A stretch of DNA of 64,000 nt from Octopus vulgaris (Eukaryota), in assembly GCA_951406725.2 (NCBI GenBank), contig OX597816.1:110236001-110300000 (forward strand), written 5' to 3'. Under the pieces are notes generated by a model. That model was not told the origin of the DNA. It saw only the letters and a program-made list of their open reading frames with translations, and ran no database searches. Shown piece after piece: positions 30,029 through 35,389 of this stretch (the stretch's first letter is position 1; each line of letters opens with the position of its first letter). The position numbers and the translations under genes were made by a program.

Positions 30029-30504
30029 TCTTTCCGAACGCGGAAATACTGAGTAAATTACCCTTACAAAGTAGAAAAATTGGTCAGCAAGCAGCTATGG
30101 GACTCGAATCCCTATCCCTCAAACACTGTGCTTTACCATTAAGCTAAACTGCCCACTGAGAAATTCACCGCTGAATTAAGACGTTAAATACTTTAGTTTT
30201 ATGGAATACCTATGTGTGTATAAATGTAAACAAATAAATGCATGTTCTGTTATTGTACTTTTATTGGAAGCGTCGGAAATGGATATTCAACGATACAAAA
30301 AACGATATTTTTCCGAACACAGAGTTGCCGTTAGAACAGCAGAAATATTTGGTAAATTACCCTTACAAGGCGGAAAAATTTGTCAACAATCAGCGATGGG
30401 ACTCCAACCCATATCTCTCAGACACTCCGGCTCAGTGCAAGTAAGGGTAATTTAGCCAGTATTTCTGGTGTTGTAACGGCAACACTGCGTTCGTAAAAAA
30501 TATC
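30029..30504. mobile_element. MITE-like element with tRNA-like modules
   Basis: Inverted repeats 30304-30366 / 30441-30504; upstream related unit 30029-30155 with minus-strand box A-like tagcttaatgg and box B-like gattcgagtcc. Confidence 0.7.
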
Positions 30505-32056: not shown

Positions 32057-32121
<65 letters not shown>

Positions 32122-32237
32122 GAGGGCATTATTATACATAGATGCCACAGGCTAAGAGGGACAAAAAGTCATTTCTACCAAATATTTTACTAATCCCACC
32201 GAATGCAATCTTTCAAAGCAAGACATTTAAAAAATAT

Positions 32238-32286
32238 AGACTTGTATCACCTGTGATTTCGTACTTATGTACTCTTCAGCAAGCCT
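32238..32286 (-). ncRNA. Canonical type I hammerhead ribozyme (copy 1)
   Basis: Minus: aggcttg CTGAAGA gtac-ataa-gtac GAAA tcac-ag-gtgaT A caagtct; 7-bp stem I, 4-bp stem II, 5-bp stem III, AUA triplet. Confidence 0.92.
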
Positions 32287-32694
32287 GGACGTATCATACA
32301 TAAACGACCCTGTCTCGTCGAAGCCAAGCAGCTAACTGTTCAACTTCAACGAAGCACATGGAGAGTTTACATATATTACATTCGGTAAATGGCAGGCTTC
32401 TTCGAATTGCATTTCGGGTAGGAAAAGTTTTTTTCGGAATAAAATTATTTAGCAATTAAGGACAACTTCTTAATAAGGAATCTTAATAAGAAATTATCAG
32501 GTAGATAGCGTGAAAAACCTCATAAGAAAAAAATTTCGAAAATAATTCTTTCTTATTGAACATATTAATTTATATAGAGAGGGCATTATTATACATAGAT
32601 GCCACAGGCTAAGAGGGACAAAAAGTCATTTCTACCAAAAATTTTACTAATCCCACCGAATGCAATCTTTCAAAGCAAGACATTAAAAAAATAT

Positions 32695-32743
32695 AGACTT
32701 GTATCACCTGTGATTTCGTACTTATGTACTCTTCAGCAAGCCT
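32695..32743 (-). ncRNA. Canonical type I hammerhead ribozyme (copy 2)
   Basis: Identical to copy 1, 457 nt away. Confidence 0.92.
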
Positions 32744-35389
32744 GGACGTATCATACATAAACGACCCTGTCTCGTCGATATATGTATATATATATAAAGA
32801 AAAGAAGCATTGGCAGCAAAAATCTCGTACAAGTAAAAAGCATTGAACTTTTACTTGAAAGCATTTAAGACGTTTATACTTCCATGAAGTATAAACTCAA
32901 TAGACAAAGGAAAATCTGTTTTTAGCTAGTTTAAGAATAAGTAACAAAAAAGCTTCATTCTCTTATAAAGCGGTTGCAATATTCTCAAAAGAACTGGGCT
33001 TCAAACAAAGAATACAAACACCATATGAACAAAAATAATCAAACAGAAAGCAAAATGAAGATAACATGTTTTTGAAACTACGAGTGGTTAAAAATGTTCC
33101 TTCCAAAATCCATATAACTATCTTCTATGAATACATGCATGCAAAAGTTTTGTGAGTATATAATTTAGTACTGAAGGCGAATATGTTCAATTTACTTAAG
33201 TGTATTGAAATTCATAACAAAATATAATTGAAATAAAGAAAAATACGCATATTACGAAATATATTGGTATTCTAAAAGAATATTTAAAAAGATATTGAAC
33301 CGAAATATTTAAAAACAAATTCCTTTCTATAATTTCTGTAATAATAAACACAAATTAAAACTTGTTCAAGGATATAATCATGAAGGAACACAGAAGAGTT
33401 AGGAGTTTAGGAATTTAATAATTCCTCTCTGAATATGTTTCTAGACTCTTTCTTTTTCGACAATCATTCACCTTGCTTGTAATTATTATCTATGCGTAGA
33501 TTCAAGTTGTGTTAATTTCTTTTTGAATCTAGTTAAAGAAATTTGGTGATACGGCACTTTGCAAGACACAATAAGAGATTAATATACGATGTTATTTGTA
33601 GTTTAACAAAATTAATAGATCATCGAGGAAAATGCTTTGAGGTATTTGATTAGGCTATTTATATTAGAGATCAAATCCCCCTACTGTCGGCTTGCCATTT
33701 CTGCTTTCCATAATCGATGAAATAAACGGTCAAATCTTGAGTTCGATACTATTGACGATCTCCTTCCCTAAGTTTCAGACTTCATTCTTAATTTAGAAAG
33801 CAATATGATAATCAGAATCAATGATACAGAACCTGTATATTTCATACGTAGATAAACGTATAGTATCCGTAAGATTATAGCAAATAATCAAACTTACATG
33901 GCCTCCACAGAAAAAGACATGGAAATTAACTCTAAGCATTCGTGTTAAGAATTAAATATGCAAAATGGTATGTTATTTATGGCAGTATTAAATATAAAGA
34001 AATATTCCCAAAATAGACATCAATATACAAAATAACATTCATCTCAGGTGAATGTAAAGAACATGGCTAGAGAAGAAACATGTTCATTGTTTGTGAATTA
34101 TAAACAAAACATATCTTGATTTATTAAGCAACACCAGAACAATCCAATCAATAAGACTTGTAGAGGAGTGGACAACATAGCCATTGGCACAAAAGCTACC
34201 ACAGTAGTGCATTTCATTCTATATCTGTGCAATTAGCAATTCGTTGATGACTGATATCAATGGCAATAACATAAGCTCGCAAGCAAAAACAAAAAGCTTT
34301 CTTAAATGAAGCAATAAGAACTAAATTTTAATATTGTACTGTGATAAATTTAGCAGAGCAATATGCTGTGTAATGCCTAATAGTCCAATAAGTATAGAAT
34401 AAAGATATGTTCAGCTCAGTTTAAATGATATGCATACATGCATACATATTAACACAATTCATGTTACGCAACCTGAAATTCATATTGCGCTATCTGAAGA
34501 TTCCTCGGCTACTGCAAAAATTAAACACCCGGAGATTTATATAAACACAAACATTCGTATAGAACGCATGTGGATGGCCAATATAAGCATGCTGTTAGAG
34601 ATATATGAGTATCGTTTGTTTCTGTTATTTACCTAAACGTAATAGTACAAATATGTACCAGTAATATATTGTTTCTCAGTCCGTTTACTATAGACTCTAT
34701 GCTACACACTGAGCAACTCATCACACACAAATATACAGAAACACACACACAATAACCAAACAGTATCGCCTGCACGTATACACTTACACAAAAGTAAAGA
34801 CAACTGGGAAAAGAATTATTTATTACGTCAGTTTACGAAGCCAGAAAATAGGCATCTCTCACTTATTTCACAGTTGCATGCTTGGTGTTAGATAAAGCAA
34901 CTGGGTGGAAAATACGTTCCCCAATAACACATCTAAATATGTTAAGGCTTGAATTTACAGACTTGTTCAATGGTGCATGAAAAGACGCAATAAATGTGAA
35001 AATGAATGAAAATGCAAAAGAGAAATATGCGTAGAAAGGATAAATAATATTTTCACAGGAAACAGGAAAATCATCATGAACTTCATCATTATCATCGGCG
35101 TCATAGTTGCGATTTTCATTGTTATCATCCTCATCATTTTTATTGGATTTTCTCTATAATTCCCTCTGTTGACTGAGGATAACAACAGCATCTCTCCCCG
35201 GTTATCGGTAACACGTCAAATCAACCATCATGAATATAAAAAATCTATATCTCATTGACATCTAAACTTTACCAAAACCAAAAAAAAAATAAAGGAATAC
35301 AATATAAATAAGACCATTAACTTTGCTAGTGCTGATGCAGCCACTAACTTACGCATTACTATTAGCTCTACTACTAATAATGTTGATAT

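Follow-up and report, generated by a model that had tools for sequence, protein, structure and literature searches.

A non-coding hammerhead repeat of Octopus vulgaris with two fixed 3' ends, probably copied in trans by Penelope-type elements

A hammerhead-bearing repeat located in a 64,000-nucleotide stretch of the Octopus vulgaris genome (contig OX597816.1; this whole stretch is referred to as the window) belongs, as judged from its sequence, to the animal (metazoan) non-LTR retrozymes, a known class, and is predicted to be self-cleaving. The combined results favoured, as a likely account, that this non-coding repeat is mobilised in trans by the reverse transcriptase (RT)/GIY-YIG of Penelope-type elements (PLEs), probably with a circular monomer RNA as the template.

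A first-pass annotation of the window had described two 201-bp direct repeats with two differences and an offset of 457, situated inside a (TA)n tract and without an ORF. This description held: repeats 32121-32321 and 32578-32778 differ at two sites (32183/32640 and 32228/32685), both flanks are (TA)n-like and, in the circularised focal unit (GC content 33%), the longest ATG ORF encodes 49 amino acids in the sense and 53 in the antisense direction. The match moreover reaches into the TA tract (32111-32321 versus 32568-32778; 211 bp, three differences). With this TA-like end included, the element measures about 668 bp, so that the earlier estimate of approximately 1.44 units becomes 1.46 (Table 1). 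Unit positions are numbered on the ribozyme strand from q1, the first base 3' of the predicted cut. The focal site A end was inferred to be the start of reverse transcription. Since repeats of the focal type are permuted unit ends of variable length, they are not LTRs, and a plant LTR retrozyme (type III hammerhead, true LTRs, 4-bp target-site duplication) was rejected in view of the type I motif and the permuted ends, no target-site duplication being readable in (TA)n. Pfam searches with 16 of the 26 long frames of the window yielded a single match, below its cut-off. At some distance from the element, a tRNA-like Rfam match above cut-off (34 bits; 30089-30153, minus strand) lies beside a (TC)n(TA)n tract; there is a related stretch near 30370-30450, and the match apparently belongs to a duplicated SINE-like sequence.

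Table 1. Coordinates in the window of the focal insertion, its parts and its flanks.
Feature	Position	Strand	Remarks
Single-armed retrozyme insertion	32111..32778	-	1.46 units, from q381 to site A
Monomer	32245..32701	-	457 nt, bounded by two predicted cuts
Hammerhead 1	32695..32743	-	type I, near-palindromic stem III; predicted cut after 32702
Hammerhead 2	32238..32286	-	identical to hammerhead 1; predicted cut after 32245
Site A, 3' end of focal copy	32111..32119	-	TATATA-like, q126-134; merges with target (TA)n
Site A, internal copy	32568..32576	-	
Site B	32446..32455	-	TAAATA-like, q247-256; internal in focal copy; second fixed 3' end of the family
Downstream 211-bp repeat	32111..32321		permuted unit end, not LTR
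Upstream 211-bp repeat	32568..32778		three differences
G-to-C variant at q95	32150..32150	-	second instance at 32607
(TA)n target tract, 3' end	32061..32110		
Short degenerate (TA)n, 5' end	32779..32797		no readable target-site duplication

In a descriptor scan of the whole window, type I hammerheads were found only at these two places, both on the minus strand, which confirmed the earlier description of one complete ribozyme motif per repeat, with predicted cuts after 32702 and 32245. The focal hammerhead has a stem I of 7 bp, a stem II of 4 bp and a stem III of 4 bp plus an A15.1-U16.1 pair around AG, and the predicted cuts sit at an AUA triplet. A comparison with Rfam models, suggested in the first-pass annotation, gave no hammerhead match to the motif, even at E<=10; the ribozyme call thus rests on the descriptor and on covariation. 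Among 19 distinct motifs, 97% of cells were paired, versus 87% in shuffles, and two-sided (compensatory) changes occurred in stem I at 5 of 6 pairs and in stem II at 1 of 3; kinship among the motifs inflates these figures. The invariance of stem III is no evidence, since the search pattern already dictated it. In the family, stem I recurs in five or more different sequence versions, each matching across the predicted cut. Apparent maintenance of the ribozyme by selection was counted as support.

Stem III is self-complementary around AG, and two copies are predicted to pair at -11.2 kcal/mol; for the stem III 12-mer alone, no hairpin is predicted. Action of the two hammerheads as a dimer via stem III, as previously proposed, is therefore energetically plausible in the folding model, but a monomer fold with a 4-nt stem III loop is also possible (-9.6 versus -7.7 kcal/mol without stem III, a gain of only 1.9 kcal/mol). 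When folded as a circle, the focal 457-nt unit showed a z-score of -5.2 relative to 25 shuffles, and z-scores of six units ranged from -2.3 to -5.9 (25 shuffles each). In the best predicted circle fold of the focal unit, the 5' strand of stem I has a different pairing partner, an arrangement that would stop the circle from cutting. A consensus fold showed two-sided change in 19 of 75 pairs, and a 12-bp hairpin is predicted at q351-386.

Searches of the genome (2.8 Gb, 227 contigs) showed that the focal element is one copy of a dispersed family. With the focal unit as query, 2107 first-look candidates were obtained; among the 40 of these that were scored, the nearest other copy was 97% identical. 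The exact ribozyme 24-mer had 138 matches genome-wide and its control none, so that the motif did not arise by chance, and other genomic copies, on which the first-pass reading depended, do exist. A 16-mer pattern and a whole-core pattern with free stem II gave 787 and 700 matches, respectively, again with controls of 0. Cut-to-cut stretches were collected from the focal copy and 24 others (418-496 nt; two doubtful); subfamilies of such units are 457-496 nt long and 65-97% alike, and the 25 stretches also include a degraded 418-nt unit, an inverted artefact (L092) and an unrelated family (L149). The dispersed intact-core motifs and the fixed 3' ends described below agree with the initial designation as a non-coding mobile retrozyme. 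By sequence, the focal insertion appears recent, its age being read from the 97% identity of the nearest copy and from 3 differing sites in the 211-bp repeats; the earlier term 'young' is apt in this sense, but present activity is not implied.

Copies are dispersed over many contigs and their flanks are unrelated. As the same layout recurs at many loci, the duplication is very unlikely to be an assembly artefact, an explanation the first-pass annotation had considered. Local DNA duplication or satellite-type unequal exchange, which the accessible text of Li et al. 2026 (bioRxiv 10.64898/2026.07.22.740005) proposes for vertebrate arrays, could also have made the repeat, and a single insertion was indeed later multiplied within a larger duplicated segment: at L077, L155, L156 and L157, all on contig C1, one two-armed insertion lies inside a shared segment of >2 kb (94-98% identical) and was probably carried along by a larger repeat or duplication. 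As the origin of the focal repeat, this explanation is extremely improbable and already largely refuted by the end pattern, in that 3' ends are fixed and 5' ends variable, inversions are present, long arrays are absent and the copies are scattered among unrelated flanks.

Three other hammerhead families with different stems were encountered (L062:5500-5950, L118:400-830, L071:3270-3870 and L149:950-1680); at L149, the stem III sequence is the same as that of the retrozyme, but the 418-nt body is unrelated. Comparison of U2 upstream regions from 7 of 12 loci with four units gave 10-15 matches per 20-25 bases at inconsistent places and thus revealed no snRNA-type promoter for the retrozyme. In L135, L131 and other 479-481-nt units, a 7-8-nt motif that adjoins the catalytic core on its 5' side, some 59 nt ahead of the cut, resembles by eye the box conserved roughly 60 nt upstream of U2 genes; it is missing from the focal and 494-nt subfamilies and probably reflects chance.

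Ends were mapped at 116 loci, comprising 28 best-scoring loci, 68 drawn from the 16-mer matches in the order of the genome and 20 picked for paired ribozymes; two loci remained unmapped and four duplicates (L079, L155-L157) were dropped. The 3' ends occur at two fixed TA-like sites, A at about 130 nt and B at about 250 nt after the cut. In the genome-order set, which is not fully unbiased as closely paired matches had been moved to the paired-ribozyme set, 86 of 91 arms ended in the A window (q118-147) or the B window (q222-265), which together make up 16% of the unit, and 82 of those 86 then run into (TA)n. The many copies and (TA)n flanks anticipated in the first-pass annotation were thus found, but the ends are not freely permuted. 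In the 5' direction, ends were scattered without a pile-up at the cut, the interval q452-5 containing those of 2/50 A arms, 2/50 B arms and 1/55 single arms.

Mild clustering of single-arm 5' ends was observed at q376-392 (9/56, scan p ~0.025), where the focal 5' end also falls. This cluster could mark an RT pause at the 3' foot of the predicted q351-386 hairpin or, alternatively, the transcription start of a linear RNA. At q124-140, 7/55 single-arm 5' ends were found against 2.05 expected. At L008, L017, L025, L084, L160 and L180, the single arm both starts and ends at site A and so covers nearly one full unit; a single turn around a circle would produce such arms, as would TA microhomology. 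A Tx1-type insertion site was rejected, since among single arms without TA the 5' flanks have nothing in common that points there.

Fifty-nine insertions consist of two arms in head-to-head orientation, with both outer ends classed in 51 and one end unclassed in eight. In 50 of the 51 classifiable insertions one arm ended at A and the other at B (p = 2e-14 against one half); the remaining insertion was B+B. If the two arms stemmed from independent RNAs, about half of the insertions should be A+A or B+B, from which binding of one RNA at two sites was inferred. Six of 50 B arms ended at A, compared with an expectation of 1.9 (p = 0.01 for this window, several having been tested), and 2/50 A arms ended at B, giving no matching collision signal.

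PLEs, as candidate drivers, were located by a GIY-YIG (PF01541) search and three GIY-YIG families of the genome were studied in detail. Families A and B are young, with copies that carry open RT-GIY-YIG frames of 781 and 784 aa, respectively; family C is older. In families A and B, the frame has a CX4CxxC linker and is preceded by an overlapping ORF of approximately 470-480 aa, for which a Pfam search with the family A sequence gave no convincing match. According to the accessible part of PMC8557442, a CX2-5CxxC linker is typical of the Neptune and Nematis clades and is hypothesised to direct microsatellite targeting. By linker, families A and B would provisionally be assigned to the Neptune/Nematis type. 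Example copies in (TA)n (L064:244-5460 for family A; L116:666-6008 for family B) have repeats at their two ends that are 99-100% identical.

Two-armed PLE insertions, picked from opposite-strand match pairs, obeyed the same end rule. A short end was combined with an end longer by 40-41 nt at all 18 two-armed loci of family B (L201-L218) and all three of family A (L043, L066, L219), L220 being impossible to score, and at these 21/21 loci both the short and the long end lay at TA-like sites in (TA)n. These ends are the published one-sided PLE tail and correspond to the pair of internal sites at which the RT starts in vitro: in the portions available, inverted PLE insertions are described with a tail at one end (PMC8557442; PMC3846280), and the PLE RT is reported to start internally at two sites, to cleave both strands and to be a predicted dimer (PMC11167929). 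Insertions of the retrozyme likewise display 5' truncation, an inverted arm, a tail at one end only and a microsatellite target. The proposal in the first-pass annotation of a PLE RT as the probable driver is supported by the A+B ends (50/51) and by this PLE control (21/21), and mobilisation of the retrozyme by PLEs is very likely.

Families A and B share with the retrozyme the order of parts, i.e., a hammerhead-like motif followed by site 1 and then site 2, with the A-B spacing of the retrozyme (~120 nt) being three times the PLE tail. Their minimal hammerhead-like motif is of the U3-A8 type, a core variant that the accessible text of PMC4209133 reports from Cercyon PLEs, and mostly lies 58-117 nt before the ends; in family B it has GCAA for GAAA, which makes its activity doubtful. 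This U3-A8-type motif, with a 4-nt palindrome, is conserved near the 3' ends of several PLE families, its stem II differing by family (examples, 0-based, plus strand: L037:2769, L052:2504, L047:2468).

The retrozyme does not itself qualify as an autonomous PLE, as its unit holds no ORF and its arms continue into the next unit. It is very unlikely that the copies are truncated ends (pLTRs) of an autonomous Penelope not yet found, or that head-to-head copies arose by snap-back self-priming. Their footprint is the same as that of PLEs, of which three GIY-YIG families were studied here in detail, and self-priming has been proposed for head-to-head PLE copies in the part of PMC3846280 that was accessible. 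However, arms that cross the unit boundary continue into a further unit and not into an ORF. An nhmmer profile of 24 retrozyme units had no match in five PLE units of families A, B and C, its only matches in PLE-bearing loci being separate retrozyme insertions in L038 and L071, and the best BLAST similarity between retrozyme and PLE had an E-value of ~0.4. Homology to PLE pLTRs, as in the Li 2026 model, was thus not found in the three families. Snap-back self-priming is further disfavoured by the 5' ends of the two arms, which are uncorrelated (5/50 within 20 nt of each other, against 4.5 expected).

For these presumably PLE-driven insertions, sequence comparisons suggested that the template is probably circular. 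The longest arm measures 2.38 units and 52/155 arms exceed 1.05 units, in a sample that is enriched for long copies. Stem I is intact over 6 bp at 106/122 cut junctions, with seven junctions below 4 bp. Tandem units within one arm had 34 private alleles in common, across 20 insertions, where ~0.55 would be expected by chance. The q95 variant of the focal copy accounts for only two of 102 motif matches in family loci and is thus private to the focal insertion, where it occurs in both units.

Twin-site insertion by a PLE could instead use an uncut linear multimer, either a primary or a read-through transcript of a tandem locus, with ribozyme and circle as side products. This alternative is considered unlikely. 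According to the accessible text of PMC11167929, the ribozyme of an Anolis PLE is dispensable, unprocessed RNA is its main substrate and hammerhead cleavage is not needed for PAc insertion in vitro. Differences between tandem units slightly exceeded those between inverted arms (2.10% versus 1.60%), an excess that was not significant at 22 paired loci (1.74% versus 1.34%, p = 0.12), and both alleles were seen in other insertions for 44/182 tandem-unit differences and for 21/114 between inverted arms. At q17, one of the positions where the focal units differ (T then A), the family is polymorphic, and L003 shows the same order, as a heterogeneous dimer template would give. The 5' cluster at q376-392 would suit a linear transcript but also fits an RT pause at the hairpin foot. 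Against a linear multimer, a linear lineage could lose length by 5' truncation but never gain it, and still there are arms of 1.9-2.4 units; no same-strand array of at least three ribozymes was found by eye among the first 100 matches listed for each of three pattern searches; and units within one arm carry private alleles in common.

Template jumping by retroelement RTs is established, and an RT that jumped from the 5' end of a cleaved linear monomer back to its 3' end would explain homogeneous units without ligation. The lack of a surplus of 5' ends at the cut and the predominantly clean junctions, each quantified above, make such a monomer highly improbable.

The favoured model, with a circular template, would start with transcription of a two-ribozyme copy such as the focal one. 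Both hammerheads would then cut, possibly as a stem III dimer, and the released 457 nt would be ligated into a circle. A PLE protein, probably dimeric, would cut both strands of a (TA)n tract, after which one DNA end would prime at A and the other at B on the same RNA, helped by TA microhomology. In the available text on the Anolis PLE, initiation is described as not homologous to the cut DNA (PMC11167929). Each RT would copy its way around the circle, past the ligated cut, and stop at a variable position, and the two cDNAs would join head to head or, as in the focal case, a single arm would join the target. What has been observed of this model is the ribozyme motif with its family, the pair of fixed 3' ends, the A+B rule and the counterpart of this rule in autonomous PLEs. 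Cleavage in vitro of only 1/9 Xenopus dimers, as given in the accessible text of bioRxiv 10.64898/2026.07.22.740005, was counted against it, as were the A-B spacing, three times as long as the PLE tail, and the lack of a profile match in the five PLE units.

Assignment to the retrozymes draws on a type I hammerhead in each unit, by descriptor and covariation, on two complete same-strand ribozymes that bound the 457-nt monomer, on a non-coding sequence with GC below 50%, and on a multicopy presence in a genome with young PLEs. At 1.46 units, the focal copy would miss a strict filter for two full tandem units. As described in the accessible parts of PMC7229834 and bioRxiv 10.64898/2026.07.22.740005, metazoan non-LTR retrozymes similarly have non-coding units of a few hundred bases with one type I hammerhead each, a GC content below 50%, many copies, co-occurring PLEs and a highly paired predicted circle, and PLEs are named as their likely driver. 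The Octopus copies differ in that they are short (no arm exceeds 2.4 units), occur singly or head to head and terminate on the 3' side at either of two fixed sites in (TA)n; no such end map appears in the accessible parts of these two sources. In Xenopus, 24/57 retrozyme families match known transposable elements, nearly all PLEs (bioRxiv 10.64898/2026.07.22.740005, accessible text), whereas no pLTR homology to the three PLE families studied was found for the focal family. A literature survey by title and start of abstract, with subscription papers and supplements aside, retrieved neither this family nor an A+B end map of a retrozyme.

Among elements with their own proteins, the EN+ PLEs of Neptune/Nematis type, in the available portions of PMC8557442, PMC3846280 and PMC11167929, resemble the retrozyme in 5' truncation, partial tandems, an inverted 5' arm, a tail at one end, two internal RT starts and a microsatellite target. 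The retrozyme differs from them by its lack of an ORF, its tail of ~120 nt versus 30-41, two start sites that are both TA-like and match the target, and a canonical core with long stem III. Dimeric or minimal hammerheads of PLEs and newt satellite 2 (PMC4209133, accessible text) share the type I topology and a palindromic stem III suited to a dimer, but usually have 1-2 bp in that stem, compared with 4-5 possible pairs around AG in the retrozyme, whose stem II length varies by subfamily. Non-autonomous elements of Chlamys such as MRC1, as far as described in the accessible text of PMC8557442, are likewise non-coding PLE passengers with pLTR-like and head-to-tail insertions. The Chlamys elements, mostly without hammerheads, resemble their autonomous partners at the 3' end, whereas the focal family has a hammerhead and no detectable similarity to a partner.

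The return of animal retrozymes to DNA has been proposed to proceed via a circle and a PLE RT, without demonstration in the accessible parts of PMC7229834 and bioRxiv 10.64898/2026.07.22.740005, and the origin of head-to-head PLE copies with a one-sided tail is listed as an open question in that of PMC8557442. The Octopus genome holds a passenger and two candidate drivers with open frames, all obeying the same end rule; what the present analysis contributes is the direct comparison with PLEs as a control, together with the allele tests. With roughly even chances, the insertions may record how a PLE enzyme dimer copied a single circular ribozyme RNA simultaneously from two fixed starts that match the target, and the retrozyme may be a parasite whose structure and TA motifs imitate the start sites of PLEs, and not a deletion derivative of a pLTR. 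If true, this would be the same asymmetric two-site priming as makes the one-sided tail of PLEs.
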